Assembly: GCA_023267435.1 (NCBI GenBank)
Contig: JAHFNH010000001.1
Location: forward strand, 80,253 to 144,252
Length of the DNA stretch: 64,000 nt
Reading direction: 5' to 3'
Origin: Candidatus Nomurabacteria bacterium
Lineage (GTDB): Bacteria; Patescibacteriota; Minisyncoccia; Phycocordibacterales; UBA9973
Both the position numbers and the translations under genes were made by a program. Shown here in pieces: positions 4,976 through 47,022 of this stretch (position 1 is the first letter of the stretch; each line of letters starts with the position of its first letter). The notes under the pieces are model-generated. The model made no database searches and was not told where the DNA came from. It saw only the letters and a program-made list of their open reading frames with translations.

Positions 4976-7900
4976 TTAATTTTGTAAAATATTAAATCTT
5001 CGTAAATATTCATTAGGATTATGTTGATAAAGGCCATTGTCTATATGAACACCATCTACTCTATTAAAATCACCACCCCATCGAAGTCCGGAGTCATTTC
5101 TAACATCTCCAACAAAACCTTGAACTGGGTTTGGTAAAGAATTAAAACCTGAATTTAAACACGAGCTACCACACATAATATCTTTGTTATTATTTTTATA
5201 TTGAATATTTACATCAACAGCAGTACCAACATAATGAGCTGAATTTTCAGTAACTTCACCTTGTTTATGGTAAACATCTCCTGGTATTGGATCTCCTTTA
5301 ATTCTAACTCCAGAACTTTCTATTTGTAATTTTACATCATTTTTACCAGCATATTGATTCAATCTATTGAGATCTTTAGTAAAATCCACAGGTACTTTAT
5401 TTGTTGAATTAAGAAAATTGTTTCCTTTATAATTCACTAATGTAGTGCCAGAATCAGAAGTTGAAGTTTTTTGCCCAGATAAAACAGTTTGAGTCGAACC
5501 CTTACTAAGGAAAGAGTTAATCGAATTCAAAAAAGATTTTATTGCTGAAAGAACTGCTATTTTTCCACTTGGATCTTTCATATTCACCGGATTGTCTCTA
5601 GCATAACTATAACTGTTTTGCTGTTGAGGATCAAGAAGAAGTTCCTGTGGCAATTGCCAAAACATCGAATCTTGACTGATGAATTGCCCAACACCAGCTT
5701 TATAATATCTGGCATTTAGATAATCCAATCCCGTATCGGTATCATAAACCTGCCCGATATATTGCCTCTGAGTATTATATGTTCCTGAAGAAATTCTTTG
5801 ACTGCCGAATGGGAAATAATCCAAAAGCTGAACGCTTGTGCCAGTGGTGTTTGAAACGACATTCGTCGAACCTAAATGATCCGTATGCACATAATACGGA
5901 GTCACCACACCACCGACTGTTTCAACAGTTGCGACAAGCTGATCACCAATATAAATACTTTTAGTTTTTTTAGTTCCGTCCGTATTGTAGAAATTATTTG
6001 GATAATAAGTATTTACACTTCCCTTTTGCATTCTCACGCGATTGCCGGCATTGTCGTATTGATAAACTAGTGTGATTGAATTTTGCACTGGCTGAGCAAT
6101 AGGAGATCTGGAATTCGACAAGTTCACATTCTTTGTCACTTGAACTAACTCATTTTTATAATTCCAAGTATTTATGATAGTTCCGTCAGTTAATAAATTT
6201 CCATTTTTATCATAGGTATTCGTCACGCTATTTATCGAGGTAGCAGCATGAGGGTTCGCATAATTTGTGCCGGTGTTACCCTGATAAAGGTAATTTCCAA
6301 CATCAGATTTATTTAAAATATTTCCAACTGCATTATAAGTGAAATTCTGAGTGTAAGGTGTCTGACCTGCCGGCACACCCGTGGCAAAAGCTACAACTAA
6401 ACGATTCAAGTCATCATAAGCATACACGACATTTTTCGTGGCACTAGTATTTGAAGTATCGATAATTTGAATAATATTATTATCCATATCATACGTGTAA
6501 ACAATATTCTGTAAACTTATTCCATTTCCATTTGTTGTAAACTTATTACTCAAACGATACATTTGTGATGCATTATAAGTATTTGTGGTAGTGGTACCAT
6601 TTGCATAATTAATCACTGCGACCTGATTCATTGGAGAATAATCAATATTAGAAATAACATTCGTGAACGAGCCAGCATTTTCTTTACGCTCGATTTGATT
6701 CAAAAGTCCGGCAGTGTTAAATGTATATCGCACTTGAGCATTATCCGGGTAAGTCATTATAGTTACATTTCCCTGCTCGTCGTATACATAAGAAGTTACA
6801 AAAATATTGCTATTTATCGTCTTGGTTTCGCTGGTAATATTTCCATTTGAGTCATAAGTATATGAAATATTGGCACCGGACGGCATCACAATTCCACAAA
6901 TTTTACTGATACCATTCGTGCAAGAATCATAGAAATAAGAAATTTCTGTGCCTGTCGCACCGGTATAATTTTCTGTCAGCATGCGGTTAAGAACATCAAA
7001 AGTATAATTTGTTGTTTTAGCTTCCGGACTAACAGATTGTGTCATATTCCCCGCATTATCATAAGCATATGTCCATATGCCGAAAGTCGTATCGCCAGGA
7101 GTGTGTAAATCTTCGGCTGTTAATCTGCGTCCAAGTCCATCATAAGTAAAGTTGCGAACATTACTCAATGCATCGGTAATATTTTTTACTTTGCCATTTA
7201 AATTCCAAGAATATGCCGTTGTGTAAGTCGAGCCTGAATTATGTTCATCTACTCGAATTAAATTTCCACGCGCGTCACTGTATGTATCTTTTATTTTTCC
7301 GCGCGGATCAGTCACGGATATTTTCCAGAGATTGTAAACATAACTTGTCGTTCCGACAGAATTTACTGAGTTCAACACACGACCCATTGGATCATATATA
7401 TATATTGTGTAGAGAGAAACATTTGTATTTGGAAAAGTTTTTACTAATCCAGTTCCAGTGTAAGGCAAAGATTGTTTTTGAATCATTCCGAGATTGTTAT
7501 AGACATAATCGCTCACGTTAAAATTGTTTGATGTTTCAGTTTCCTTTCTGTTTTGAATAATTCTTCCCAATCCATCGAAGTATTGATATGTGTCGACAGA
7601 ATTTGAGGCATTCAGATAATCTGTTTTATGAATAGAAACCGCACCGGCAATGTCTGTGTAAACATATGCTGTTTTTGTGACAAGAATTGAAGGTGTGATT
7701 AGGTCAGGAACTTTTTCCACAAGCACTCGGTCGAGTCCGTCATATTCTGTCTTGTAAACAAAACCATTTTGATCAGTTATTTGTTTTGGCTTACCGAGCG
7801 AATAATTATATAAATAATTCACAGAGTGGTTGAGCGCATCAGTGACAGTGGCGGGATATAAATGGTACGAATCATAAGAATAAGAAGTCACATGGCCATT

Positions 7901-10900
7901 CTCATCAGTCAACGAAACGACATTGCCATAAACTCCGTCATAAGATTTTTGCGTGTTTACAAAAGTTATGCCAGTCAGCCATTTTTCTATTTTGGTTTGA
8001 TTGCCCAGGCCGACAGAACCCAGCGCCAGTCTGTCGTAATAATTGCGAGTTTCATTCACTTTCGCCCCATTCTGGTCAAACACTGTATCATCATACGGCA
8101 AGCCAGTGACATTGTTGCCAGTGTTTGCAATATACAAAATATTTTCAATTGATTTATCAGAACCAATATCGGTAAATGAACCATCGGTATTTGCCGTCAC
8201 CTCTCCCCAACTAGTTTTTTGAATTAAATTTCCATAAACGTTGTCGTAAGAATATTCTTCAGCTGTGTCTCGGTGACTACTAGTGCCATCATAAGTCAGC
8301 GCAGTCGTGCTAGTAAGTTTTACAAATTTATTGCCATTGCCTAAATCATAATCATCCCATTTATTTACAACAACCGAATACAAGTTGGTAGAACTGTCAG
8401 TTTTCTCTATCCTGTATGGTTGTCCGATTTTCCATTCGTCATCATTATATTCTCCATGAGAAGAATCTGTGCCGATCCCAGTATGATAATACGTCGCAGT
8501 TGTATTTCCAGCCGGATCTGTTTCAATCACTTTATTAAAACCGGCAAATTTTCTGTCGGTACTGCCGTTGAAAAAATACGATCCTCCTTGATAACTATAT
8601 GTGGTCGTTCCAGTATTTCCGTTTCCATCATTAGTGGTGATTTGATATGTTGTTGGCAAATTAAGCGGTAGACTTGGATTCAAGAGGTTCCCATTTCCAT
8701 CTTTATAGTGATTGCTCATTTTATAAGTAACATTTGTTTGCCCGCCGGTTGGAAGCGTGATAGAGGCAAGCAAGTCTACCGGAAGGGTTGTTTTATTAAA
8801 AAACACATTATTAGTTATATGATTAGTAATACCATCAAAATAATTACCTTGATTTAGAATATCCGCCTGACCATCACCGTTTGCATCAAATAGCAGTCCG
8901 GGATTTAAATCAATATAGTCATTTATTCCCAAGTTAGCACCCGTATTCCAATTAATATCCCAAACCCAGCTATGTCCCTGGTTGATATACACCTTAAGAT
9001 TGGTACAACTTGCGCCACAAGCTCCACCAAGTTGATATGGGTAAAGAATATCAACCAAACCATCGCCATTGATATCTTGAAAAATTTCCCGATTAAAAAC
9101 ATTTCCATTTTGAGTACGAGTTAAAATAATAAAATCTGAAGGAAGAGTGTAACTGGAATCTAAAACCCAACCTGTACCTGTATTTAAATAAACTGACTGA
9201 AACATTCCAGAGGGTTGTGCGGGTGGCACTCCGTAAGTTGATTTGATTATGTCAGCCAAACCATCACCATTCACATCAGCAAACACTTGGTCATTCAAAA
9301 ATTCTGGACTTGCAAAAGTCTGACCTACAGAAGCATTATATGTGCTGAAGTTAGAGCCCGTATCCCATGCAATACTCGTCGTCACAGGTGATGGCCAGAC
9401 AGAAACATCTTTAATATAATCAGAAAAACCATCGCCGTTTAAGTCGGCAACAGCCTGCGGATAACTAAAAGGAGGATTCCAACTTGGGTTCGCAGTCCAG
9501 CCTGAACCATTATTAAGATATGAAGCTTGAGCTCCCCAAGATGAATAAGGGTCGTTACGAACCATATCGTTCAACCCGTCACCATTCACATCTATAACTT
9601 TCGTACTAGCATCTCCCCAACCGTTGTTGTCATGCCGAGCAATCCATATATCGGAAGGAACCGAACGAGAAGTGTCCAATTGCCAGTTGTCAGATGATGG
9701 ATGATATAAATATATTCCCTTTGCAGAATTATAATAATAATCAACATTATTCCATGCTTGAATTAAATCAGTGTAACCATCGCCGTTCACATCGGCTGGG
9801 ATGGTTCCATTATGCGTATCAATAGGGATATATGTTGAACTTTGATTTGAAGGAGTAAAGCCAGAAGTGCCTTGTGTATATGAAAAAGAAGTTGCAGGCA
9901 AAGTCGTCACAGTACCATTAGTGTCTTGACCGGACTCTATTATACTTGAGAGCAAAGAGCGATTGGTATTAGTGCCAGCTATATAATTGAAAACATATTT
10001 CGAAGTCCAAGTGCCATTAACTTTCACATCGATCTCATTGATTAAATAATTGGTGGTACTTGGGAATCCAGCCGCCGCCGACATCATCGCATCAGATCGT
10101 GAAGAACTTCTCAAAAAATCAATTTCAAAAATACCACTACTTGCGGAGTGATTGGAATACGTTATTGTTGCAGGATATATTTGACTGGAATTTTTGTAAT
10201 AAGTGTAAGATATGAAATTTCCATTCGTGTCTTGCACGCTCTCCAGCATCCATTTGTAAACATGAGAAAAATTATTCGGATCATCCTGCCTTGTATTTGT
10301 ATTCGTTCCAAAAGTATAAATCGTTCCTGTCTTATCTGTAACCGTCCACATATTGCTACTAAAACTATATTTCAAAAAATCTCCTTTTTCTATTTTAGAG
10401 GCATAAGTACCGCCAGAAACATTTACCAAGTCCCCTGACAAACTGGAAGAAAAATAATTATCTGTAAATAAAGTGTTGGTGCCTTTTTTATTCACTCTTT
10501 GAATGTAAGGAATATTCATTGACCAGCCATATCCGAAAACACTATCTTGAATTAAATTTTGACTGTTGTACTGAAGAGATAAATTCGGCTGCGTATTATT
10601 GCGACCAGGTGGAACGGCAATAGTATAACTGTAAACCAATGCCCCAGTCGAAGGATCTGTTTGGGCAATACTTTTTTTAACATTAGCATACTCGTTTGTT
10701 TGATTCATTGGGCTGACAGTGGGATTGGGACTTTTATTTTTTTCAACAGTAGGTGTTAGTGTGTCTTCACTGGAAATAGTTCCTCCACTTGGTGCATCTT
10801 TTTTTATTGCAGAAATATTGTCTGTCGCTGTCACTTTTGCATTTATATCTTTCGCTGATAAATCAGGTAGAGCAACATCAGTAGTGTTCGTATCTGAAAC

Positions 10901-11053
10901 ATTACTTGATGGCGCACTTTTAGTACCATCTGTTTTAACAGAAGCATCTTGCGCGAAAGTTATAGGCGTGAGAGAAATAAAAAAACCTAAAACAAGAAAG
11001 AAAACTACAGCTCTAACTAACACTAACGAACATAAAAATTTCTTTATATTCAT
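4976..11053 (-). CDS. Giant secreted SpvB/FG-GAP/RHS-repeat polymorphic toxin (Tc-toxin BC-like) with a C-terminal M15/LAS zinc-peptidase-like toxin domain
   Basis: N-terminal signal peptide and SpvB-like block PNLSLQYNSQ..GYGWSMNIPYIQR. Six DxNGDGxxD FG-GAP/VCBS motifs and many YD/RHS repeats (YTYDGLGRR, YAYDNAGNMT, YQYDNAGNRV). RHS core YYVHTDHLGSTN...YYKAGVGQFISQD and autoproteolysis-type motif NMKDPSGK. The tail has SAHYVGTAVD and LRWGGDF..DGVHID. Confidence 0.85.
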   Translation of the reverse strand: MNIKKFLCSLVLVRAVVFFLVLGFFISLTPITFAQDASVKTDGTKSAPSSNVSDTNTTDVALPDLSAKDINAKVTATDNISAIKKDAPSGGTISSEDTLTPTVEKNKSPNPTVSPMNQTNEYANVKKSIAQTDPSTGALVYSYTIAVPPGRNNTQPNLSLQYNSQNLIQDSVFGYGWSMNIPYIQRVNKKGTNTLFTDNYFSSSLSGDLVNVSGGTYASKIEKGDFLKYSFSSNMWTVTDKTGTIYTFGTNTNTRQDDPNNFSHVYKWMLESVQDTNGNFISYTYYKNSSQIYPATITYSNHSASSGIFEIDFLRSSSRSDAMMSAAAGFPSTTNYLINEIDVKVNGTWTSKYVFNYIAGTNTNRSLLSSIIESGQDTNGTVTTLPATSFSYTQGTSGFTPSNQSSTYIPIDTHNGTIPADVNGDGYTDLIQAWNNVDYYYNSAKGIYLYHPSSDNWQLDTSRSVPSDIWIARHDNNGWGDASTKVIDVNGDGLNDMVRNDPYSSWGAQASYLNNGSGWTANPSWNPPFSYPQAVADLNGDGFSDYIKDVSVWPSPVTTSIAWDTGSNFSTYNASVGQTFASPEFLNDQVFADVNGDGLADIIKSTYGVPPAQPSGMFQSVYLNTGTGWVLDSSYTLPSDFIILTRTQNGNVFNREIFQDINGDGLVDILYPYQLGGACGASCTNLKVYINQGHSWVWDINWNTGANLGINDYIDLNPGLLFDANGDGQADILNQGNYFDGITNHITNNVFFNKTTLPVDLLASITLPTGGQTNVTYKMSNHYKDGNGNLLNPSLPLNLPTTYQITTNDGNGNTGTTTYSYQGGSYFFNGSTDRKFAGFNKVIETDPAGNTTATYYHTGIGTDSSHGEYNDDEWKIGQPYRIEKTDSSTNLYSVVVNKWDDYDLGNGNKFVKLTSTTALTYDGTSSHRDTAEEYSYDNVYGNLIQKTSWGEVTANTDGSFTDIGSDKSIENILYIANTGNNVTGLPYDDTVFDQNGAKVNETRNYYDRLALGSVGLGNQTKIEKWLTGITFVNTQKSYDGVYGNVVSLTDENGHVTSYSYDSYHLYPATVTDALNHSVNYLYNYSLGKPKQITDQNGFVYKTEYDGLDRVLVEKVPDLITPSILVTKTAYVYTDIAGAVSIHKTDYLNASNSVDTYQYFDGLGRIIQNRKETETSNNFNVSDYVYNNLGMIQKQSLPYTGTGLVKTFPNTNVSLYTIYIYDPMGRVLNSVNSVGTTSYVYNLWKISVTDPRGKIKDTYSDARGNLIRVDEHNSGSTYTTAYSWNLNGKVKNITDALSNVRNFTYDGLGRRLTAEDLHTPGDTTFGIWTYAYDNAGNMTQSVSPEAKTTNYTFDVLNRMLTENYTGATGTEISYFYDSCTNGISKICGIVMPSGANISYTYDSNGNITSETKTINSNIFVTSYVYDEQGNVTIMTYPDNAQVRYTFNTAGLLNQIERKENAGSFTNVISNIDYSPMNQVAVINYANGTTTTNTYNASQMYRLSNKFTTNGNGISLQNIVYTYDMDNNIIQIIDTSNTSATKNVVYAYDDLNRLVVAFATGVPAGQTPYTQNFTYNAVGNILNKSDVGNYLYQGNTGTNYANPHAATSINSVTNTYDKNGNLLTDGTIINTWNYKNELVQVTKNVNLSNSRSPIAQPVQNSITLVYQYDNAGNRVRMQKGSVNTYYPNNFYNTDGTKKTKSIYIGDQLVATVETVGGVVTPYYVHTDHLGSTNVVSNTTGTSVQLLDYFPFGSQRISSGTYNTQRQYIGQVYDTDTGLDYLNARYYKAGVGQFISQDSMFWQLPQELLLDPQQQNSYSYARDNPVNMKDPSGKIAVLSAIKSFLNSINSFLSKGSTQTVLSGQKTSTSDSGTTLVNYKGNNFLNSTNKVPVDFTKDLNRLNQYAGKNDVKLQIESSGVRIKGDPIPGDVYHKQGEVTENSAHYVGTAVDVNIQYKNNNKDIMCGSSCLNSGFNSLPNPVQGFVGDVRNDSGLRWGGDFNRVDGVHIDNGLYQHNPNEYLRRFNILQN

Positions 11054-14375: not shown

Positions 14376-15570
14376 TTTTTTTATTAAAATTAAAATAAAT
14401 TACGGCGAAAATAATGCTGATTACTGCTAATACAGAAAGAGTGATACGCATGCTTGATAAGTCTATCATGATACCTAAAACAATCGGTCCGGTGATTTCT
14501 GCTACTTGCGACACACCTTCAAATGCTCCGCTCAATGTGCCAATGTGTTCTTTCGGAACCGCAAGCGTTATTTCCCTATCAACTGATAGGCCTAACAATT
14601 GAAGACATGAACCAATCAAAAATACTAAAACCAACTGCGCTGGAAATATTGGAATAAAAGCAAGGAGAAATAAGAAAACTGTTAAAAATCCACATGTCCA
14701 AAATATTGTGTGTTTATATTTATCGGCAATTAAACCAAGAGGAGAACTAAATAAAGCCGGAAAAGCTGCAAAACCAGTTAGTAAAACAATTTGCCAAAGA
14801 CTTTGGTGTTGAGTAAAAGCATAAATAGGAATAAAAAACTCTCCGACTGTGGCTGTTATATCAATAAACAAATAAAATACTGCAAGCCAGCGTACGTTCC
14901 TGCCCCAAGAAATAATTGTTTTGAAAAAACTTCCATAAGAACCGAAAACTGAGAGACGAGCTTCTTTGGTAAGAGATGAAGCAGTCAGTCCATCCGGTAG
15001 TTTGCGCACGAAATAAATCGCAATGAGCGAAGTCGGAGCAATCATTAAAAATAAATAATGAATAGGAATATATCGTACAAGTATCGCACTAATGAAAATA
15101 GCCACGAGCCACCAGAAATTTGCCAATGAATCCATATATCCGAATGAAGTAGCAATATTTTCGGGCTTAGCGTGAGTGCGCACATAAGTAGCTCGTCCGA
15201 CACCATCGAGAGCATAAGCAACGCCGTTGATAATACGCGCACAAACAATGAAAGCAATAACCCCAAATACTCCAGCGGAAAAATAACTGATACTGATAAA
15301 TGGATACAACAATAATGAAACAATCAAAAGTTTCTTACTGGCGATATTGTCAGCGAGCCAAGACACCATTGGAAGTGAAAGCAAAAATACAACTCCATAA
15401 ATAGAACGCAATAAACCTGTCTCAGCATAAGTGTGAGCGAAAGAGAAAAGGAAAATAGGCAAAAATGCCTCAGCAAACCCCCAACCGAACCAGCGGATAG
15501 ATGTGGCGATAGATATAAGTCGCACTCCTTCTTCAATATTTGGATTAAAAAGTTTAAAAAATTTCTTCAT
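14356..15570 (-). CDS. MFS transporter
   Basis: About 12 TM segments, 404 aa. Confidence 0.7.
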   Translation of the reverse strand: MKKFFKLFNPNIEEGVRLISIATSIRWFGWGFAEAFLPIFLFSFAHTYAETGLLRSIYGVVFLLSLPMVSWLADNIASKKLLIVSLLLYPFISISYFSAGVFGVIAFIVCARIINGVAYALDGVGRATYVRTHAKPENIATSFGYMDSLANFWWLVAIFISAILVRYIPIHYLFLMIAPTSLIAIYFVRKLPDGLTASSLTKEARLSVFGSYGSFFKTIISWGRNVRWLAVFYLFIDITATVGEFFIPIYAFTQHQSLWQIVLLTGFAAFPALFSSPLGLIADKYKHTIFWTCGFLTVFLFLLAFIPIFPAQLVLVFLIGSCLQLLGLSVDREITLAVPKEHIGTLSGAFEGVSQVAEITGPIVLGIMIDLSSMRITLSVLAVISIIFAVIYFNFNKKNEQNKI

Positions 15571-15603
15571 ATAAATGATTACTCAACTTGGTCATTTTAG
15601 CAT

Positions 15604-15650
15604 ATTTGTGATATTGTTTGGTTAGAAATTCAATTGTTGTCTAACTAAAA
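15604..15650 (+). promoter_or_regulatory. Copy 1 of the shared promoter/operator module (TGTGATATTGTTTGGTTAGA..TCTAACT)
   Basis: -10-like TATTGT with a TTAGA-n13-TCTAA inverted repeat, 15 nt upstream of the ATG at 15661. Confidence 0.5.
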
Positions 15651-15660
15651 ACTTAATAAA

Positions 15661-16149
15661 ATGTTCACATACAAAGAAATCGAAAAATCCTGTAAACGAC
15701 TGGGAATCGATACAGAAAAAAGAGGTAAAAATCCTTTTGCTTTGGCTAAAACAATTTACGCCAAAGATAAATCCGCGAACCTAAAAGAGCTAGGGTTCCC
15801 TGAAAAGGAAAAGGTTCAAATTGAAAAAATTGGCAAACTGATTAATAATTTATTTTCCCAACTCACATTTCCACGTTCTTTTAATTTAACAACCGAAGAA
15901 GGTAAATTAGAAAAAGAGATGGATGATAAAATAAGTAAATTTTTACCAACCGCATGTCTTAGCCAAAAAGAGTGGCTTCAATCTGGAGCTCAAAAAGCTT
16001 CACTAAATGTTTCAGATTTTTCTTTGGATTCAGGTATTGTTTATGAACTAGATAAAGAAAAAGTTAAAGCTATGAAAGATATGCACGATAGTGGTCCACG
16101 ATATGTCCGTCTTAATAGAGGTGGTCACAATAGAAGATTTGGTGGATAA
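15661..16149 (+). CDS. Hypothetical protein
   Basis: 162 aa, preceded by a copy of the shared promoter module. Confidence 0.4.
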   Translation: MFTYKEIEKSCKRLGIDTEKRGKNPFALAKTIYAKDKSANLKELGFPEKEKVQIEKIGKLINNLFSQLTFPRSFNLTTEEGKLEKEMDDKISKFLPTACLSQKEWLQSGAQKASLNVSDFSLDSGIVYELDKEKVKAMKDMHDSGPRYVRLNRGGHNRRFGG

Positions 16150-16217
16150 ATTATTAATAAAAAAGACTGAAAAAATTCAGTCTTTTTATTTTACCTAAAC
16201 TCAAAACGAGATTTGCA

Positions 16218-16688
16218 CTATCTAAGCAATTTATACATATAGTATCTGGGATAATCTAATCCTTTTAATTCGGAAAATAATTTCATCCCTATTTTTTCAT
16301 AAAAAACTTTTGATTCCCCTGTGGCAAGCATAACGACTTTCTTCTTCCATCGTTTTTTAATTTCACAGAACAATCCTTTCATAAAAATTGTTCCCAGACC
16401 TTTCCCTTTATATTCCGGTTTTACCGCAAGGTATTCGATTGATACCACTGAAGAAGTGTATTCATCTTGCTTTATTCGCGCAGATGCAAACAATTTTCCA
16501 TCCTTATACAACCCATAGACAATACCTTTGTCTAAATCCGGAGAAACACTAAGACTGTTAGCAATAAATCCGAGCATTAATTTTTTATAATTTTTCTTAT
16601 TAGACGGACCTGATAAATAGGAAAGTTCAACAATTTCATCTATTGAAGTTGTTGGAGTTATGATTTTAACATCGAATTTTGTTTTCAT
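16218..16688 (-). CDS. GNAT family N-acetyltransferase
   Basis: Motif A-like VSIEYLAVKPEYKGKGLGT. Confidence 0.7.
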   Translation of the reverse strand: MKTKFDVKIITPTTSIDEIVELSYLSGPSNKKNYKKLMLGFIANSLSVSPDLDKGIVYGLYKDGKLFASARIKQDEYTSSVVSIEYLAVKPEYKGKGLGTIFMKGLFCEIKKRWKKKVVMLATGESKVFYEKIGMKLFSELKGLDYPRYYMYKLLR

Positions 16689-16754
16689 TTGTCTATATTT
16701 ATTTAGTTAGAACTATGTTTATTTCTAGTTTCAGACTATCAACAAACCATTTAC

Positions 16755-16836
16755 AAGTCAACATACTTGTGATATTGTTTGGTTAAATAAATTCCTGAAA
16801 AATAATCGAGCAATAGCTCATTAAAAACTTAAAACC
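16755..16836 (+). promoter_or_regulatory. Copy 2 of the shared promoter module, plus the 5'UTR block CGAGCAATAGCTCATTAAAAA
   Basis: AAGTCAAC-n6-GTGATATTGTTTGGTTA. The UTR block recurs at 32966. Confidence 0.45.
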
Positions 16837-17412
16837 ATGCTGATACTTAAAAAATTTCCTGAAATTAAGGATTGGGCACTGGATATAATGTCTAATACCC
16901 TACAATTTGAAACCGAACTTCCATATGAGTTGGGTCTAATCAAACAAACTTCGTTATTTGTTAAAAAAACAATTAGATTAAAAATTATAAGAAACCAATT
17001 TTATTGGGGAACTTTAGGTTACGACAATACAATAACCATTGTAGAGAGATTGGAAGGTTGGCAAAAGCTTCAAACAATTGGGCATGAAGTAGGACATGTT
17101 CTTGTTGATCATCACAACGACTTATACTGCTTGAAAGAACACCGTACAAAAGAATCTTTCCTGATTGATAAGGAAACGGGTAAAGAATTTATCGAAAATT
17201 GGCACGTTGAACTGGAGAAACAGGCGCAGGTATATTATCCTCCAACAGATTTTCGTTCCAGAGAAAATATAGTTGAAATATTATGCGATGAGATAGGAAT
17301 TTATTTTACTCAAAGAGTAAATAAGTTTAATAATCTTGAGTGTTATAGGGAAATTTGTCCTGACCAGCTACTTCTCTTTTCTGATGATGTTTTAAAAGCT
17401 CTTAAAAAATAA
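16837..17412 (+). CDS. HExxH motif protein, possible ImmA/IrrE-like zinc metallopeptidase
   Basis: IGHEVGHVLVDHH. 191 aa. No partner HTH gene seen. Confidence 0.35.
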   Translation: MLILKKFPEIKDWALDIMSNTLQFETELPYELGLIKQTSLFVKKTIRLKIIRNQFYWGTLGYDNTITIVERLEGWQKLQTIGHEVGHVLVDHHNDLYCLKEHRTKESFLIDKETGKEFIENWHVELEKQAQVYYPPTDFRSRENIVEILCDEIGIYFTQRVNKFNNLECYREICPDQLLLFSDDVLKALKK

Positions 17413-17485
17413 TTTAAGAGCTTTTTTATTTCCTTGCCCATTACAACATTCACAAAAATAAAAAAACCTGAATTTACTCAGGTTC

Positions 17486-17641
17486 TTAAATACGCAAATC
17501 AATTATTCCAAAAATTGCTAATAATAACACTGTAAAGGAAAAAACAGCTGAAATTATTGCAAAATAAAAGGAGCTGTTTAAAATAATTCGTTCAACTAAT
17601 GTTTGCTCGTATTCAGTATACTCATTTTTAAAAGTCTTCAT
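17486..17641 (-). CDS. Small (51 aa) single-TM protein, below the ORF-track threshold
   Basis: MKTFKNEYTEYEQTLVERIILNSSFYFAIISAVFSFTVLLLAIFGIIDLRI. A terminator hairpin (aacctgagtaaattcaggtt plus T-run) follows the stop on the minus strand. Confidence 0.3.
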   Translation of the reverse strand: MKTFKNEYTEYEQTLVERIILNSSFYFAIISAVFSFTVLLLAIFGIIDLRI

Positions 17642-17699
17642 TTTATTTAAGTTTTTAATTTTTAGAACTCCGTTTATTATCTATCCCTATACTACTATC

Positions 17700-17781
17700 A
17701 AATCTTTGACCTGTCAACGCATTTATGATATTGTTTGGTTAGAAATTTTGTTATTGTCTAACTCTCTAAATACCTTGAAAA
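17700..17781 (+). promoter_or_regulatory. Copy 3 of the shared promoter/operator module
   Basis: TTGACCTGTCAA palindrome, TGATATTGT, GGTTAGAAATTTTGTTATTGTCTAACT. Confidence 0.5.
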
Positions 17782-18195
17782 ATGAAAAATCTAACTATTT
17801 TATTAGACCCAGCATATACTCTTGACTGGCGCGTGCTATTTATTTTCATAATTTTTTTTATCATTGCAATGTTTCTTATAAAGAGAACAATAGACAAGTC
17901 GTCTAAAACAGTTATCATTGAACCTGACAAAACCCTTCAACTTCAGGAGCTTCTTCTTAAAAGAACTATCATTGTTTTAAGAACAGACAGGAAATTACCA
18001 ATTGTTCAATATATTGAAGATTACCAAGAAGGTCTTAACACGGGAATGTTTGCTAATACATTTTATCTTGATAATTACGGTGAAGATAAATTATTAGAAG
18101 GAAAAACGTACGACATCGAATCAACCGGCAAAGGACAAATTCGATCATTGCGACAAGTTTCAATGTTGATTTGCGAAGATTTTATTGTGCATTAG
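17782..18195 (+). CDS. Hypothetical N-terminal TM protein
   Basis: 137 aa with TM segment WRVLFIFIIFFIIAMFLI. Confidence 0.4.
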   Translation: MKNLTILLDPAYTLDWRVLFIFIIFFIIAMFLIKRTIDKSSKTVIIEPDKTLQLQELLLKRTIIVLRTDRKLPIVQYIEDYQEGLNTGMFANTFYLDNYGEDKLLEGKTYDIESTGKGQIRSLRQVSMLICEDFIVH

Positions 18196-18238
18196 TTAAA
18201 AAATCAAAAAACCAATCACTATATAGTGGTTGGTTTTT

Positions 18239-18454
18239 TTATTTTTCTATAAATCTAAACCTTGGAATTTGTTTTCCTTCAACTTCTACATTTTCTAAAA
18301 ACATTTTCAATGGTCTAACCCATAAATCATTTTCACCATACAAAGCGCGGTAAACAACCAACTCTTCTAGAGTTTCACTGTGTTTAGCCACACCAATGAC
18401 TTCATATTGTTTGCCTTTATAATGTTCGTATTTCCCTAATTTTATTTTAGGCAT
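18239..18454 (-). CDS. DUF1653-family small protein
   Basis: GKYEHYKGKQYEVIGVAKHSETLEELVVYRALYG...WVRPLKMF matches my recollection of the DUF1653 consensus. Confidence 0.55.
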   Translation of the reverse strand: MPKIKLGKYEHYKGKQYEVIGVAKHSETLEELVVYRALYGENDLWVRPLKMFLENVEVEGKQIPRFRFIEK

Positions 18455-23799: not shown

Positions 23800-24252
23800 A
23801 TGAAGATCGAATGGCAGGCACCAGAGTATGAAGATAAAAAGAGAAGCATTGATTGGTTTTGGGCGCTCGGCATCATCGTCGTTGCAGGCTCTATAACCTC
23901 GATTATTTTTGGTGATTATTTTTTTGCCATACTTCTAATCTTGGGTGGATTAATGCTTGGATTTTTCGCAACCCAAAAACCTGGAATGGTCACCTATGAA
24001 ATGACTGAAAAGGGAATAAAAATAAATACGGAATTTTATCCTTTCAAAAATATGAAATCTTTCTGGATTCAGATGGAGCCAAAGTTTATTCTCTTTATAA
24101 AAATAGACCGTTTCTTTATGCCAATTATTTCCATGCCAATAGAAATGGATAAAGCTGAAGAAATAAATAAATTAATGATAGAAAATAACATTCCCGAGGA
24201 AGAAATGAAACCACATATGTCTGAAAACATAATGGACAATCTGGGATTCTAA
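23800..24252 (+). CDS. Hypothetical membrane protein
   Basis: Two TM segments, 150 aa. Confidence 0.4.
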   Translation: MKIEWQAPEYEDKKRSIDWFWALGIIVVAGSITSIIFGDYFFAILLILGGLMLGFFATQKPGMVTYEMTEKGIKINTEFYPFKNMKSFWIQMEPKFILFIKIDRFFMPIISMPIEMDKAEEINKLMIENNIPEEEMKPHMSENIMDNLGF

Positions 24253-27681: not shown

Positions 27682-27860
27682 TGTTATAGACTATACTATT
27701 TAGCCTGAAATTGAAAGCTTTATCAAAAAATCTTTGACAAATATCTTGTTATGTACTACACTTGATAAGCAAAATAGGTCGTAACCCTAAAGGGTTCTAT
27801 GGGAGTCGATTTCTCGAAAAATACTTATCTTTGTAATTTAACACTTAACAAAAAAATTCA

Positions 27861-28058
27861 ATGACTGGTACAATCAAAAGATTAACCGATAAGGGATTTG
27901 GATTCATCACAGCAGAAGGACTAGCGAAAGATTTATTCTTTCACAGTAATTCTCTTGTAGGCGTAAGCTTCGATGAATTGCACGAAGGCGACGCTGTTTC
28001 CTTCGAAACAGAAGAATCTCCAAAAGGTTTGAATGCTGTGAACGTTCAACGCGCATAA
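27861..28058 (+). CDS. cspA: Cold-shock protein CspA family
   Basis: GTIKRLTDKGFGFITAEG and DLFFHSNSL RNP motifs. Confidence 0.9.
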   Translation: MTGTIKRLTDKGFGFITAEGLAKDLFFHSNSLVGVSFDELHEGDAVSFETEESPKGLNAVNVQRA

Positions 28059-31957: not shown

Positions 31958-32030
31958 GCGCCCGTAGCTCAGTCGGTAGAGCAGCTCCCTTTTAAGGAGA
32001 CGGTCGTTGGTTCGATTCCAACCGGGCGCA
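31958..32030 (+). tRNA. tRNA-Lys, anticodon UUU
   Basis: GCGCCCG acceptor, D-arm GCTCAGTCGGTAGAGC, anticodon loop CTTTTAA, T-arm GGTTCGATTCCAACC. Followed by a compound hairpin. Confidence 0.85.
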
Positions 32031-32095
32031 CAAAACGAGAATTTAACAAAAGCACCCTGCGGTGCTTTTGTTCGTTTTGTGCGAGCCACAGTCAT
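32020..32095 (+). terminator. Compound hairpin/terminator overlapping the tRNA-Lys 3' end
   Basis: Outer stem gcacaaaacga/tcgttttgtgc, inner stem aaaagcacc-ctgc-ggtgctttt. Confidence 0.5.
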
Positions 32096-32231
32096 ATTTT
32101 TTCAGCAGAAAAAATAGACGAGGCAGGGTTGTGAAAATTTTCTTTTGACGAAAAGAAAATTATTCCTGACCACAAAAAGATTCTTCCGAGCGACGGCGAG
32201 AAAATATTTGTGACCACAAAATATTTTGAGA

Positions 32232-32262
32232 AATAAAAAACCCCTTGAATTTCAAGGGGTTA
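32232..32262 (-). terminator. Terminator for the minus-strand gene 32275..32856
   Basis: ccccttgaa-ttt-caagggg with a T-run on the minus strand. Confidence 0.5.
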
Positions 32263-32274
32263 AATTAAGTACAA

Positions 32275-32856
32275 TCATGAACCAACATAACATATTTCTT
32301 TTCCAATAGGATGTCGTACACATCTTACAATATGTACACGAGATATTACGTCTTTTGAAAAACCGTTCATTTCCAAAAGTGTTTTCAAAGATTTTTTAGG
32401 AGTAAAAGATATGTCATTTACTTTAACAATGTCTGTTCTTTCTTTCCAATCTACTTCGTGCATCCAATCATAGAAACAATTTCTTACATAATGCTTATAA
32501 GCAAAATAACTTCTTGTGTCATCTCGTTCTCCTGCTTTGTATGGATTAAGAAGAACATTTTCAAGCAAATACATATCACCAGGTTTATAATCATCAAGAC
32601 GTTCTATTTTCCCCTGATATGTAAGTTCAATTTCACGAGTATTATCGTAATTACTCAAAACATCTTTCATGAGTTCCATAAAACTTATATTTCTTAAAAA
32701 AGATTGTTTCTTCTCTAGATCAATCCCGAGTAAAATAAAATAATAAGAAAGTGGTTCTTCGCTAGATGGAATGTGTAATACTTTTACATTTAAAGAATCA
32801 GAAAATAAATCTGTTCTCTCCTTAAGTTGATCTAGAATATTTTTTTCTATATTCAT
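32275..32856 (-). CDS. Hypothetical protein
   Basis: 193 aa, no motif. Confidence 0.4.
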   Translation of the reverse strand: MNIEKNILDQLKERTDLFSDSLNVKVLHIPSSEEPLSYYFILLGIDLEKKQSFLRNISFMELMKDVLSNYDNTREIELTYQGKIERLDDYKPGDMYLLENVLLNPYKAGERDDTRSYFAYKHYVRNCFYDWMHEVDWKERTDIVKVNDISFTPKKSLKTLLEMNGFSKDVISRVHIVRCVRHPIGKEICYVGS

Positions 32857-32904
32857 TTTTCTATAGTATTTGATTGTTTAAGGACTCTGTTTATTTCCTC
32901 AACA

Positions 32905-33001
32905 CAATATCACAAAAACATTGACGAGTCAATAAATATTTGGTATTGTCTGGTTAGACATTTCTGATAACTAACCGAGCCTAGCTCATTAAAAAATAAA
33001 A
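32905..33001 (+). promoter_or_regulatory. Copy 4 of the shared promoter/operator module (TTGACGAGTCAA, TATTGT, GGTTAGACATTTCTGATAACTAACC)
   Basis: 40 of 41 nt identical to the copy at 34432 (ATCACAAAAACATTGACGAGTCAATaAATNTTTGGTA). Confidence 0.55.
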
Positions 33002-33979
33002 ATGGAAACAAAACCTAAACTTAAATTGTATGAGAAATTAACCTCAGCGTTATATTTCTTGCATTATGATGTAACTTCACAGGTTCTTTCTTTTTTCATA
33101 CATAAGTCTTGTGTAGAAAATTTAGAAAAACTAGCTGAAGGTAATAATCTTCTTGAGATTTATAAAAATAAGTATTTTCCTGAACAAACCTCTTACACAA
33201 GTTACCTTAAAACTGTTCATGGTTTTAATGATTGTGGTAAGGTTGAGGGAATATTTGGTAATTTCTTAAAAATTTCTTTTAAACTTTTACCCCTTTACAC
33301 TTTTACTGAAGAAATATGTTCGGAATGTAAAGGAACTGGCAAGCACAATGTTTTTGATTTGAATTGTAATCAATGTCATGGAACAAAAAAAGAATTAGTT
33401 TTCAATAGAGAACCATTACTTGCAATAACCAATACAATTTCTTTATTACTTGCTCTCTTAGATTGTTATATAGCAATCTACGAATCAGATTCGTCTTTTG
33501 AAGAAAAATACACTGAGTCACTATATGTAATACGAACAATTACAGAACGTGACATGAATGGTCATGCAATGGGCGGATCTATGAGTGGTTTTTTTAAAAA
33601 AGCTATTGAGGATTATTTTAATCACAGTGTTTCTGCCGGCAAATCTTATAAATCTATTAGTGGAGAGTCTGTTTGTTGTGAACAAGTTGAAAAAGATATG
33701 GAACAAACATACAAAATGTTAATGGCTAATCCTTTCGCAACTAAATCAGATTTACATTCAATAACAGCTCTTGTAAGAGATGGGGGTTTCTTTTACCTAG
33801 AAACTAATGGGACTAATGGATGTAACTTTTATACATCCAATCAGGGAATGAATACATATTGGTATAAAGGAAAAGATAAAGGTTTACCAATTTCTTGTCA
33901 CAATGTTGATGGTCCTTTACAACAAATCATATTACTGATTGGTTTAGCAAGATTAAGTGAAGATATTATTTTGTCCTAA
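33002..33979 (+). CDS. Hypothetical protein with a DnaJ-type CxxCxGxG zinc-finger pair
   Basis: CSECKGTGK and CNQCHGTKK. Confidence 0.4.
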   Translation: METKPKLKLYEKLTSALYFLHYDVTSQVLSFFIHKSCVENLEKLAEGNNLLEIYKNKYFPEQTSYTSYLKTVHGFNDCGKVEGIFGNFLKISFKLLPLYTFTEEICSECKGTGKHNVFDLNCNQCHGTKKELVFNREPLLAITNTISLLLALLDCYIAIYESDSSFEEKYTESLYVIRTITERDMNGHAMGGSMSGFFKKAIEDYFNHSVSAGKSYKSISGESVCCEQVEKDMEQTYKMLMANPFATKSDLHSITALVRDGGFFYLETNGTNGCNFYTSNQGMNTYWYKGKDKGLPISCHNVDGPLQQIILLIGLARLSEDIILS

Positions 33980-34078
33980 TTTTTAAAGCACTACTTATTG
34001 TAGTGCTTTTTATTTCCCCCCTACATCGCCTTAAAGAAATTAAAACAAAAAAAGAAGTATTTCTACTTCTTTTAATTC

Positions 34079-34384
34079 TTAACTTGTAACTTTTGCCAAA
34101 ACTTCCATTAAAGTATCAAAACTGTAATTTAGACAAACTTCCATATCCTTTATACAATCTTTTTCTTCAGCAGGATTATTAAGAAATTCTTCTTTAAAGT
34201 ACTTTTTTGATGCATAGTTTTTTTCTGTGCCTACAGAATTTCTAATTTCTTTGCAAAAATTTTTGTAAAGTTTTGGTCCAAGTACCTGTGCGATTTCTGT
34301 ATTTATAGAAACAGAATGTATTAATTTTCTATTATAATGAAAATGTATCTTTCCAGCGAGTTTAAAAGCTTCTTTAGTTAACAT
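34079..34384 (-). CDS. Hypothetical protein
   Basis: 101 aa. Terminator aagaagta-tttc-tacttctt downstream. Confidence 0.35.
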   Translation of the reverse strand: MLTKEAFKLAGKIHFHYNRKLIHSVSINTEIAQVLGPKLYKNFCKEIRNSVGTEKNYASKKYFKEEFLNNPAEEKDCIKDMEVCLNYSFDTLMEVLAKVTS

Positions 34385-34429
34385 GTTTTTATTTTTTAGA
34401 GTTAAACAACAATTATATTTTCAAATAAA

Positions 34430-34524
34430 CCATATCACAAAAACATTGACGAGTCAATGAATGTTTGGTAATGTAACAACAGAACATCGCTATTTAAAAT
34501 AAAATCTCACTAAAAATAAAACAA
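34430..34524 (+). promoter_or_regulatory. Copy 5 of the shared promoter module plus a conserved 5'UTR (..TCTCACTAAAA..)
   Basis: ATCACAAAAACATTGACGAGTCAATGAATGTTTGGTAATGT. Confidence 0.55.
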
Positions 34525-34872
34525 ATGAAAAATAAGTATATTTGGTTAGTTGTCCACAAATGGGGCAAAAACCTAGAAAAAATAACCGGTAGTTTAGTTC
34601 TTACAGAGACTACCGACATTTCAGAATTAAAGAAGGTCTATTCAAGTGGAAATGCCCCTACTGCATATATGGAAGGCGATAAAACATTTGTAAAACTTCT
34701 AAATGAAAAAAGAGAATTAAACAAAAAGGGAGATATTCTTTTCAATGAAAACATACTGGAACTAGATTCACTAAATATCTTGTCTGAAGCTCTTGTAAAA
34801 TTTTTGAATCCAAAAAAGGAATGGGTATTAGTACACCAAAAAACAATTGTTCTAAGAAAAAACAAAAAATAG
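34525..34872 (+). CDS. Hypothetical protein
   Basis: 115 aa. Terminator aaacgttgcat-aaaa-tgcaacgtttt follows at 34884..34912. Confidence 0.4.
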   Translation: MKNKYIWLVVHKWGKNLEKITGSLVLTETTDISELKKVYSSGNAPTAYMEGDKTFVKLLNEKRELNKKGDILFNENILELDSLNILSEALVKFLNPKKEWVLVHQKTIVLRKNKK

Positions 34873-34929
34873 AACTTTATCAAAAAACGTTGCATAAAAT
34901 GCAACGTTTTTTATTTTTTATTTCGGTGT

Positions 34930-35454
34930 TTACCTCATCACCTCTCCAACAGCTTCATCTTCAAGATCTTTATCCGCATCTGCTTTAGTGATGTGTATGC
35001 GTCCGTCGATATGATTTGGCGGAGCGTAGACTGTATATATTTTCAGTGAACTCGTGCCTGTATTTATAAAATTATGTTTTGTACCCGGTGGCACCACGAC
35101 GACATCCCCTGCGCTGATAGGACTTTCCTTTCCATCTAAAACTGCTTTACCGACACCACTTAAAAAGAACAAGGTCTGTTCGGTGTATTTATGCGTTTCT
35201 TCGCCGACTTCCCCACCTGGCGGAATATCCATGACGACGAGCTGGCTTCTCGTGCCGGTAAAAAGAACTTTTCTAAAATATGTATTTTTCTCTACTTCAT
35301 TCACTATGTTTGTTGTATAAGGCATATGAGCTTTGCTACTTATTAATAATAATTCACTATTTTGTTTATTTTGATAAAAGTAAATTGTTCCAACTAAGGC
35401 AGCAATCAAAACCAGTACAACTAAAATCAAATGCCATTTTTTAAGTTTTTCCAT
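34930..35454 (-). CDS. Membrane-anchored cupin-domain protein
   Basis: N-terminal TM. Cupin_2-like GEETHKY..FFLSG.G......ISAGDVVVVPPGTKHNF. Confidence 0.65.
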   Translation of the reverse strand: MEKLKKWHLILVVLVLIAALVGTIYFYQNKQNSELLLISSKAHMPYTTNIVNEVEKNTYFRKVLFTGTRSQLVVMDIPPGGEVGEETHKYTEQTLFFLSGVGKAVLDGKESPISAGDVVVVPPGTKHNFINTGTSSLKIYTVYAPPNHIDGRIHITKADADKDLEDEAVGEVMR

Positions 35455-35499
35455 AATATGTTTATTATAACACTATCACCTAAAGTTTGGTGATATAAC

Positions 35500-35610
35500 T
35501 TTTACAAAAACATTGACGGGTCAACAAATCTTTGGTAAAGTAACAAAAAGATTGCGTTGTTTGAAAAATTAACAAATTCACTGAATATTCTCACTAAAAC
35601 AATAAATAAA
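35500..35610 (+). promoter_or_regulatory. Copy 6 of the shared promoter module plus 5'UTR
   Basis: TTACAAAAACATTGACGGGTCAACAAATCTTTGGTAAAGT. UTR homologous to copy 5. Confidence 0.55.
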
Positions 35611-36015
35611 ATGAAAAAGAAAATTGAAATTTGGAAAAGACAAAGAATTATATTCTTGATCTTGGGTATTATTATCACAGTAGTATCACTGTATTTTTTA
35701 CTCAAAAGTGAAACTGGATTGCCCTTATATCCTATTTCAGGAATGATTTTAGGGGCTATTATTGCTTTTGGCTGTGCTGTACATCTTGTCTTAGGATATC
35801 CTGTCCTACAACGAAAAGGCTTCAATACCAACCAGGAAATAAAAACATTGTCTTTGTTTAAAAAAGAGGAAATAGGAGGAGTAACTTTGTATGTTTATGA
35901 AATAGAAATCAAAATCCTCAATAAGGAAGAAACTTTCTTGCTTGAAGATACTGTTTGTTTAAAAATCGGTGATTCATATATACTGACAGTAGATAAAAAA
36001 TGGGCTCAAAAATAA
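35611..36015 (+). CDS. Hypothetical membrane protein. The start is taken at MKKKIEIWKRQ rather than the ORF-track start at 35557.
   Basis: Two TM segments. Terminator ccttgca-gaaa-tgcaggg plus T-run follows at 36023..36046. Confidence 0.4.
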   Translation: MKKKIEIWKRQRIIFLILGIIITVVSLYFLLKSETGLPLYPISGMILGAIIAFGCAVHLVLGYPVLQRKGFNTNQEIKTLSLFKKEEIGGVTLYVYEIEIKILNKEETFLLEDTVCLKIGDSYILTVDKKWAQK

Positions 36016-36052
36016 AAAATGTCCTTGCAGAAATGCAGGGATTTTTTATTTC

Positions 36053-45822: not shown

Positions 45823-47022
45823 TTATATTATCTTTATAAATCTTCTCTTACCTATCTTGTACACTCCGGGAATCGCCATTATTTTAAAATCAGTAATTTT
45901 CTCTTCACTATGTTCAATTAATCTTTTAACTGCACCTTCATCAACAAGCCTGCGCCATTCACTCTTTGATGCTACGATTTTATTTTCAAATAAAACATCC
46001 ACCATTAATTCTCCTGTTTTATGTTTTACTTCTTCTATATCATCTGGAATTTCTTTTTTTTGAAAAGTATTAACGAAATTTTCTTGGGCTTCTTTTGCTT
46101 TTTTCTCTCCGTGATAAATTTTTACAATTTCTTCAGCTAGTTTCATTTTAAAATCTTTTGGATTTACACCATCTTGCATTTGTTTTTCAAAATCTTTTAT
46201 TTGTTCCAAGGAAACATCAGTACAGAGTTCAAAGCCTTTCAGAATTAAAGAATCGGTCCAGCTCATAACTTTACCAAACATTTCATTTGGCTTATCTTCA
46301 AAAGAAACCATATTGCCTTCTGTCTTGCCCATCTTTTTTCCAGAATTATCTTCTAGAAGTTTCATGGCTACGACAGATTTGTCTTTTTTTAATATTTCAG
46401 AAACTAACTCTCTTCCCATTAACATATTAAATGTTTGATCATTTCCACCCACCTCAACATCAACATTCATCGCGACACTGTCATAGCCTTGCATCAATGG
46501 ATACATAAACTCATGAATAAAGATTGGCTTGCCTTCTTGATTTCTACGGGCAAACATATCTCGTTTTAACATCTGATCGACTGTAACTCTTGAGGCAAGA
46601 TTTAAAACATCTTCAAAATTCATTTTCGCAAGCCATTTAGAATTAAATTTAAATTGCGCTTTATTTACACCAGTAAATTTTAAAAATTTTGAAGCTTGTT
46701 TTTTATATTTTTTTAAATTTCCCAGAACTTCTTTTTTTGTGAGCTGTTTTCGTGCTGCCATTTTATCAGTCGGGTCTCCAATCATTGCTGTAAAATCTCC
46801 CATCAATAAAATAACTTCATGACCTAAATCTTGAAATTGCTTTAATTTCATTAAGGGAATAGCGTGACCCATATGCAGAGTCGGACCAGTCGGATCTATT
46901 CCTAAATAAACTTTAAGCTTCTTACCTGAAAGAAGCTTTTGTTCCAAAGTCTCTTTGACGAAGATATTTTCAACTCCTCTCTCGAGTACGTTTTGAATTT
47001 TTTCATCCTTGCTTATTTTCAT
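45823..47022 (-). CDS. tyrS: Tyrosyl-tRNA synthetase
   Basis: HIGH-type LHMGHA, KMSKS-type KMGKT, C-terminal S4-like domain, about 400 aa. Confidence 0.8.
   Translation of the reverse strand: MKISKDEKIQNVLERGVENIFVKETLEQKLLSGKKLKVYLGIDPTGPTLHMGHAIPLMKLKQFQDLGHEVILLMGDFTAMIGDPTDKMAARKQLTKKEVLGNLKKYKKQASKFLKFTGVNKAQFKFNSKWLAKMNFEDVLNLASRVTVDQMLKRDMFARRNQEGKPIFIHEFMYPLMQGYDSVAMNVDVEVGGNDQTFNMLMGRELVSEILKKDKSVVAMKLLEDNSGKKMGKTEGNMVSFEDKPNEMFGKVMSWTDSLILKGFELCTDVSLEQIKDFEKQMQDGVNPKDFKMKLAEEIVKIYHGEKKAKEAQENFVNTFQKKEIPDDIEEVKHKTGELMVDVLFENKIVASKSEWRRLVDEGAVKRLIEHSEEKITDFKIMAIPGVYKIGKRRFIKII

Follow-up and report, generated by a model that had tools for sequence, protein, structure and literature searches.

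Genes with unrelated products share nearly the same upstream sequence in a stretch of 64,000 nucleotides (nt) from a Candidatus Nomurabacteria bacterium (contig JAHFNH010000001.1; the whole stretch is called the window here). This raises the question of what the shared sequence is and why it recurs. A first-pass annotation had reported it upstream of three open reading frames (ORFs), at 15661, 16837 and 17782, and had proposed a common regulator or a mobile promoter cassette rather than gene duplication. The recurrence was confirmed: the 16-mer TGATATTGTTTGGTTA is found exactly on the plus strand at 15609-15624, 16770-16785 and 17726-17741, and the three ORFs begin 37-52 nt 3' of these copies. 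The cassette half of the proposal held up, with homologous modules before unrelated genes, in strain-variable segments and in other Patescibacteria, and with a swap of module type in one ortholog (L127); the regulator half was not borne out. As judged from the sequence, the modules probably form a family of homologous, reused ("mobile") bidirectional promoter-leader cassettes placed before unrelated accessory genes. Apparently, they combine ordinary promoter parts in an unusual, recycled and lineage-typical arrangement.

Six related modules in divergent intergenic regions

With up to three mismatches allowed, TGATATTGTTTGGTTA had six matches in the window versus 1.8 expected, and 0 of 100 shuffles attained six. 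Matches with three mismatches at 35946 and 49350 lie inside coding sequence and were treated as chance. The longer 20-mer of the first-pass annotation is exact in copies 1 and 2 and has one mismatch in copy 3 (TATGATATT...). Three copies had been counted, but the family is larger: TGGTATTGTCTGGTTAGA at 32941 is a fourth copy and precedes the ORF at 33002, and related modules are found at 34446 and 35513. A repeat finder, run independently, returned the modules as the top repeat families within 15-36.5 kb.

The modules occupy six divergent intergenic regions, named c1 (15571-15660), c2 (16689-16836), c3 (17642-17781), c4 (32857-33001), c6 (34385-34524) and c7 (35455-35610). These are six of the ~16 divergent junctions in the window, and all lie in two strain-variable islands, the second of which (island B, within 31958-36052) holds c4, c6 and c7. 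The best 50-nt segments were identical at 41/50 positions between c1 and c3, 43/50 between c4 and c6 and 41/50 between c6 and c7, whereas shuffles averaged 27 and never exceeded 29. Pairs involving c2 reached only 34-38/50. A chance origin of the repeats was ruled out by the shuffles, for the 16-mer count as well as for the 50-nt identities.

Module c1 separates the MFS404 gene (MFS transporter, minus strand) from hyp162 (15661-16149, plus strand). The three plus-strand genes had been taken as consecutive, but two minus-strand genes, GNAT156 (16218-16688) and tm51 (17486-17641), are interleaved with them. The view that the downstream proteins are mutually unrelated was supported, as an all-against-all BLASTP of the island proteins gave no significant match. 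The HExxH protein (motif HEVGH) and the transmembrane protein (N-terminal hydrophobic helix) named among the products were both recognized.

Two predicted promoters back to back

Each full cassette, ~90-150 bp long (~140 bp), would consist of two sigma-70-type promoters placed back to back, with their -35 hexamers abutting. On each side, a 17-bp spacer would lead to a TG-extended -10 element, TGnTAnn[G/C]T, with a predicted start at an A ~7 nt further on. A 40-75-nt A/U-rich 5' untranslated region (UTR) without a Shine-Dalgarno sequence would follow on each arm. The pattern TTGACn-17 nt-TGnTAnnnT was found on both arms of c2, c3, c4 and c6 and on the plus arm of c7. These modules thus have the features of extended -10 promoters of the sigma-70 type, namely a TTGACA-like -35, a 17±1 bp spacer and TG at -15/-14. 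A Bacteroidota-type promoter (TAnnTTTG) was rejected because of a spacing misfit, read directly from the sequence.

A palindrome, TTGACnnGTCAA, had been reported in copies 2 and 3; it is present in both, perfect in copy 3 and with one mismatch in copy 2. Perfect copies start at 17706, 32921, 34446 and 35513, and the palindrome is found in five of the six cassettes, c1 being without it. TTGAC-k-GTCAA occurs four times in the window at k=2 and at no other k from 0 to 15, with only 56 TTGAC pentamers on both strands combined. The palindrome is the pair of abutting -35 hexamers (TTGACn/nGTCAA) of two divergent predicted promoters. The block TGTGATATTGTTTGGTTAGA of the first-pass annotation is likewise the predicted extended -10 (TGnTATTGT) of one arm, called P below, together with the next six bases (the discriminator), the predicted start and the first UTR bases. 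The two -10 hexamers of one cassette are separate, lying 46 bp apart on either side of the shared -35 pair, and the predicted starts are ~72 bp apart.

In c1, the predicted plus-strand promoter has a -35-like TGGTCA (15589-15594), a 17-nt spacer, TG at 15609-15610 and the -10 TATTGT at 15612-15617. Its predicted +1 is the A at 15624, and an unstructured A/U-rich leader runs from there to the ATG at 15661. This -35 is weaker than those of the other modules. On the minus strand of c1, TGcTAAAAT (15602-15594), read directly, is a candidate promoter of the MFS gene. Module c2 is a bidirectional cassette around the near-palindrome TTTACAAGTCAA (16750-16761). Its plus arm has TG at 16770-16771, the -10 at 16773-16778, a predicted +1 at 16785 and a P-type leader. 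The minus arm has the -35 TTGACT (16761-16756), the -10 TGaTAGTCT (hexamer 16738-16733) and a leader of the second type, M, which extends to the GNAT156 ATG at 16688.

Module c3 is built in the same way around the perfect palindrome TTGACCTGTCAA (17706-17717). On the plus arm, TG lies at 17726-17727, the -10 at 17729-17734 and the predicted +1 at 17741; on the minus arm, the -35 TTGACA (17717-17712) and the -10 TAGTAT (17694-17689) precede an M-type leader, AACGGAGTTCTAAAAATTAAAAACTTAAATAAA, which ends at the tm51 ATG (17641). In island B, c4 has the palindrome TTGACGAGTCAA (32921-32932), a plus arm with TGgTATTGTCTGGTTAGA (32941-32958) and a P-type leader to hyp325 (325 amino acids, aa), and a minus arm with TGaTATTGT (32912 down to 32904) and an M-type leader to hyp193 (193 aa). 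The palindrome of c6 (34446-34457) is flanked by TGgTAATGT on the plus and TGaTATGGT on the minus arm. That of c7, TTGACGGGTCAA, lies at 35513-35524, with TGgTAAAGT on the plus arm.

Other genomes provided the strongest evidence that the palindrome is part of a predicted two-way promoter and not a separate operator. A scan of species-representative genomes with a palindrome-plus-(-10) pattern gave 55 loci, and the genomes with several matches were all Patescibacteria. These were Minisyncoccia bin59 (JBAQFC01, six matches), Paceibacterota WB02no17_34_18 (JAVHNX01, three matches) and a metagenome-assembled genome labelled Saccharibacteria (CAZUZG01, four near-identical copies). On the side of the palindrome that was not selected by the pattern, TAnnnT was found at exactly 17 nt in 13 of 19 unique Patescibacteria cases, 11 of them with TG, and no other spacing from 10 to 25 exceeded two cases. 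Four of these 13 came from modules matched on both strands, and the count without them was 9/15. In other phyla, the unselected side had TAnnnT at 17 nt in 1 of 36 cases.

The CAZUZG01 genome (L071, L072, L120) contains at least four module copies, with ~50 nt nearly identical among themselves, and the module is its sole nucleotide-level similarity to the window. A phage origin was rejected, as the palindrome-plus-(-10) pattern gave one match in viral contigs, which was unrelated; a shorter pattern, TGRTATTGTYTGGTTARA, gave 63 single matches there, which were noise-like and were dropped. Among the Firmicutes matches (L074, L089, L113 (Paenibacillus) and L096), TTGACnnGTCAA occurs two to three times within one promoter region (GTTGAYGYGTCAAC). 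This looks like a true operator array, and hence like a different use of the same palindrome.

Could the cassettes also be a regulon? A dimeric transcription factor would then bind TTGACnnGTCAA or the start-site repeat TTGGTTAGA-n13-TCTAACYAA and co-regulate the island genes, and the conserved block would be its operator. We regard this as unlikely. The palindrome occurs only with a 2-nt centre, as a binding site might, but two -35 hexamers, each spaced exactly 17 nt from its own -10, fully explain it. Typical helix-turn-helix dimers would also need half-site centres further apart than the 7 bp seen here. The start-site repeat TTAGA-n13-TCTAA was located in copies 1 and 3, as had been reported (15622-15626 and 15640-15644 in c1; 17737-17741 and 17755-17759 in c3), and only there. 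It extends to 9 bp in c1 (TTGGTTAGA at 15618-15626 and TCTAACTAA at 15640-15648) and is perfect in the ortholog L121, which would suit a regulator. A regulon should, however, have the same repeat at fixed spacing in all its members, and this was not found: the gap from GGTTAG to CTAAC is 13 nt in c4, 14 nt in L121 and 15 nt in c1 and c3; the ortholog L126 has lost the left arm, and c2 has no such repeat.

A position table of 48 unique half-modules bears on the same question. Family-wide conservation was limited to the -35 hexamer, TG at -15/-14, the -10 hexamer TAnn[G/C]T, a weak G at -3, A at +1 (34 of 48 half-modules), A-rich positions +2 to +6, and the mirrored signals of the partner promoter, including its TG. 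Because family-wide conservation was limited to these promoter features, TTGGTTAGA is a subfamily trait and not a universal element. Inverted repeats were not enriched across the 48 half-modules, and no DNA-binding domain was found among the island proteins of the window. What would still speak for a regulator is that the spacer and discriminator are conserved beyond the promoter hexamers, and that the c7-type subfamily has a 7-8-bp inverted repeat bracketing the -10.

Another possibility was that the motif stands upstream of most genes and represents the housekeeping promoter of the genome. A profile built from ten half-modules and searched in the 64 kb at E<1 found only the 11 known halves, in six intergenic regions, so the cassette reading was not refuted in this way. 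The parts of the cassette are ordinary, as its -35 and -10 match the local sigma-70-type consensus; the whole module is not. Other leadered genes of the window (41327-, 43432-, 26186-, 50400- and 2587-) also use TTGACn-17-TGnTAnnnT. The T-rich spacer of one promoter forms an A-tract just upstream of the -35 of its partner and by inference resembles an UP element as generally understood. Two polymerases may compete for the palindrome or may be coupled through local supercoiling.

Leaders, inverted repeats and translation

Seven oriented modules from five sources (c2, c3 and c4 of the window; L127; L134; L132; L072) were aligned. The alignment has two distinct leaders, M on one side and P on the other, and both are conserved between genomes as far as the ATG. 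The M leader reads ...AAAC[G/A]GAGTTCTAAACAAT...ATAGAAAA-ATG. The P leader reads TTGGTTAGAAAT...CTAACC, followed by an optional short hairpin and then by TTAAAAA...ATG. In c2, this hairpin is GAGC-AATA-GCTC at ~16807-16820, with TTAAAAACTTAAAACC ahead of the ATG at 16837; the P leader of c4 has GGTTAG/CTAACC and GAGC-CTA-GCTC. The minus leader of c6 (34395-34441) is 79% complementary to the plus leader of c1. On the opposite strand, the P-leader hairpin GAGC-n3/4-GCTC (16807-16820 and 32976-32988) is terminator-like.

The conserved leaders suggest another explanation, a cis-acting RNA element in the 5' UTR that would act in stability, processing or ribosome recruitment to leadered mRNAs, the promoter being incidental. 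Besides the conservation of both leaders up to the ATG, this explanation could draw on hairpin 2, which follows the AACC box with four different stems, on the near absence of Shine-Dalgarno sequences in the organism, and on the c2 leader, which folds better than its shuffles (z = -1.97). The other leaders fit it less well: those of c1 and c3 are without hairpin 2 and, from the predicted +1, are unstructured and less structured than shuffles. The first hairpin, formed by the TTAGA-n13-TCTAA repeat, reaches a folding energy of -8 to -10 kcal/mol in its extended c1 form, but it was rejected as an RNA hairpin, because its 5' arm immediately follows the -10, which places this arm ahead of the predicted +1 and thus outside the mRNA, and because it is lost in L126. 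The repeated block itself also lies mostly upstream of +1. Rfam matches above gathering scores in the window were two tRNAs only, with nothing credible at E up to 5 in 15400-18300, and the independent sequences were too few for a covariation test. Taken together, we find an RNA element quite improbable as the main explanation.

Translation signals in the rest of the window give a context for the leaders. In about 17 of the 59 genes, the ATG is preceded at 6-13 nt by a TATAAT-like hexamer that lacks a -35 and often also a TG, as in 45823-47022(-), 37243-39666(-), 52129-53472(-) and 23800-24252(+). Only 6 of the 60 gene starts have a Shine-Dalgarno-like sequence. Translation in this organism seems to be mostly leaderless or independent of Shine-Dalgarno sequences, and the cassette leaders may have a role in translation of the latter kind. 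If so, there would be two gene classes, leaderless housekeeping genes and leadered, cassette-driven accessory genes. A cold-shock-like gene of 65 aa (27861-28058) lies ~100 nt 3' of a strong TTGACA-17-TACACT promoter (region 27734-28058), and its long leader is unlike those of most window genes.

Several observations weigh against the cassettes being promoter units and nothing else, or against their mobility. Promoter activity and the +1 positions are predictions. Matches to a generic sigma-70 pattern were not enriched over shuffles (15 versus 14.2 expected; 17 versus 18), so that in such AT-rich DNA it is the exact spacing, the TG, the symmetry and the conservation that carry the argument. 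The scans by which modules were collected demanded part of the motif, which introduced a bias at the TG and at the G of position -8 on the arms that were selected. Conservation also exceeds the known contacts of RNA polymerase, including spacers such as CACAAAAACA, the TTGGTTA discriminator and the CTAACC box, so that an extra factor or an RNA role is possible. Hairpin 2 of the P leader keeps a constant position with four different stems (GAGC/GCTC, AGCC/GGCT, GAGCC/GGTTC and GAACT/AGTTC), and its wobble pairs are all G-U on the sense strand. In the c7-type subfamily (-10 TGGTAAnGT), the inverted repeat flanking the -10 is 5-8 bp long and has compensatory changes, the middle base changing on both arms (ATCTT/AAGAT, ATATT/AATAT, ATGTT/AACAT). 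It was seen at 35525-35560 and 34458-34490 of the window and in L066, L111 and L102. As its left arm lies upstream of the predicted start, an mRNA hairpin is no explanation for it. Finally, no transposase, target-site duplication or integrase was seen at the cassettes or islands.

Variable islands and reuse before unrelated genes

The cassettes lie between divergent accessory genes, mostly orphans, each gene ending in an intrinsic terminator. Terminators were found after every island gene, nine versus 1.2 expected in one scan and ten versus 1.5 in another. Related genomes differ in just these segments. In L121, whose MFS transporter is 81% identical, the order MFS, c1, hyp162 is kept, and the c1 intergenic region is ~89% identical by our own count, above the neighbouring genes. 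Two other genes stand in place of the whole segment from the hyp162 terminator to the malic enzyme gene, which in the window holds GNAT156, c2, HExxH191, tm51, c3, tm137, the DUF1653 gene, the isochorismatase gene and a second GNAT gene.

The module type also differs in front of one and the same gene. The hyp162 ortholog in L127 (71% aa identity) has a c2/c4-type module upstream and not the c1 type. The one in L126 (64% aa identity) has TTGCCT-17-TAGAAT and retains only the distal leader.

Island B begins directly after a tRNA-Lys gene (31958-32031). L109 and L116 are syntenic with 24.9-38.7 kb of the window at 77-81% nucleotide identity, and the gene content of island B differs from theirs. 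This synteny places the organism among Patescibacteria of the Minisyncoccia/Paceibacteria type, and the window itself matched a metagenomic contig (ENA ERZ27297709, Logan SRR14366756). Their island is shorter and has one module, between a 61-aa ORF and a HAD-like protein. The 51-nt core of this module is 92-94% identical to c6, whereas the flanking genes are 77-81% identical. Relative to L109, c7, the tm134 gene (134 aa) and its terminator form a 583-bp insertion (35470-36052), which separates the cupin gene from holA and lacks a target-site duplication.

Taken together, these comparisons suggest that the cassette was copied or recombined before unrelated genes (promoter reuse), which would give them a shared expression signal without paralogy. 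Spread as a miniature mobile element with outward-facing promoters, of the MITE or Correia type, that transposes into intergenic regions was also considered. The module is roughly palindromic, multi-copy, intergenic and present at non-orthologous sites, and it occurs in distant genomes with no other nucleotide similarity to the window, all of which such an element would explain. However, the left and right arms resemble each other only in their promoter elements, and two distinct oriented leaders take the place of terminal inverted repeats. The only insertion that was resolved (35470-36052) comprises promoter, gene and terminator together, and an empty-site polymorphism of the module alone was not seen among the compared relatives. 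A MITE-like origin is therefore very unlikely and, like a regulator and a functional UTR RNA, is less supported than reused cassettes.

No papers on Patescibacteria promoters were found in a literature search, and to our knowledge almost nothing is known about transcription signals in this group (the candidate phyla radiation). Classical back-to-back divergent promoters usually serve a regulator-target pair, with a regulator gene and an operator. The cassettes resemble them in having two predicted promoters that point outward from a short intergenic region, but they come without a regulator gene, and the same cassette recurs in front of many gene pairs that are unrelated. E. coli also has promoters that are bidirectional by symmetry of the -10, which is shared, with starts on opposite strands on either side of it or within it (Warman, Grainger and colleagues; PMC12825309). 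In both systems, a short pseudo-symmetric sequence is predicted to drive divergent transcription, and the binding modes may compete. In the cassettes, however, each predicted promoter has its own -10, and the symmetric shared element is the -35 pair.

The closest parallels concern reuse. Putative mobile promoters are highly similar upstream sequences before non-homologous genes of one genome that are shared by distant taxa (Matus-Garcia, Nijveen and van Passel 2012; PMC3575422). The modules agree with them in that the downstream genes are not paralogs, and three module pairs (c1-c3, c4-c6 and c6-c7) reach at least 80% identity over at least 50 nt, in a region that includes the -10 and the leader, whereas that survey used -150 to -50. 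They differ in that the unit here is a predicted two-way promoter with abutting -35s and two conserved leader types, which takes in the -10 as well as the complete 5' UTR. In Patescibacteria, this unit is linked to variable orphan-gene islands, and its architecture is undescribed in that survey. Correia, ERIC and REPIN-type repeats are also multi-copy and intergenic and can supply promoters to their neighbours (cited in PMC3575422). Unlike them, the modules had no terminal inverted repeats, target-site duplications or module-only insertions.

If the cassettes are what we propose, they would represent a compact bidirectional promoter architecture distinct from the shared -10 type of E. coli, and a marker for variable, orphan-rich islands in reduced genomes. 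They would also show how a promoter can be reused together with its UTR and start-codon context, the whole expression signal moving independently of the genes. A more speculative extension, which we hold to be unlikely, is a portable two-way expression cassette used across the whole phylum. The -35 palindrome would then let polymerase bind in one orientation at a time, leading to either/or expression of the flanking genes, and the leaders would allow translation of leadered mRNAs without a Shine-Dalgarno sequence. Moving between genomes by recombination, such cassettes would pick up lineage-specific orphan genes in variable islands or give rise to them, so that genes would be recruited by way of the promoter.

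For most of the cassette-flanking proteins, in the window and its relatives, no family was found in Pfam, NCBIfam and PDB sequence searches. The hyp162 protein is an orphan without a Pfam match, known from only four protein clusters, and its gene ends in an intrinsic terminator at 16160-16187. GNAT156 is a GNAT acetyltransferase whose predicted promoter is the minus arm of c2. HExxH191 (16837-17412, plus strand; terminator 17394-17425) has the HExxH metal-binding motif. Its sole outside match was a weak one to the phage family phrog_87 (metalloprotease), and no other defence or phage annotation was obtained for the island proteins. An exhaustive search of 1.84 billion proteins returned two close clusters and five representative clusters for its family; its AlphaFold model had a pLDDT of 38.7 and was not used. 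The tm51 gene (terminator 17487-17462), predicted to be transcribed from the minus arm of c3, encodes a hydrophobic membrane protein of 51 aa. The tm137 gene (17782-18195, plus strand; terminator 18206-18239) encodes 137 aa with an N-terminal transmembrane helix and no family match.

Two further proteins of the window have recognizable segments. The 325-aa orphan downstream of c4 (33002-33979, plus strand) has a weak match (E 4e-4) to a DnaJ-type CxxCxGxG zinc finger at residues 102-129. A giant ORF of 2025 aa on the minus strand (4976-11053) has the architecture of an RHS-type polymorphic toxin, with SpvB, DUF6443, RHS/YD-shell and Peptidase_M15_4 domains, and is an unusual cargo for a small Patescibacteria genome.

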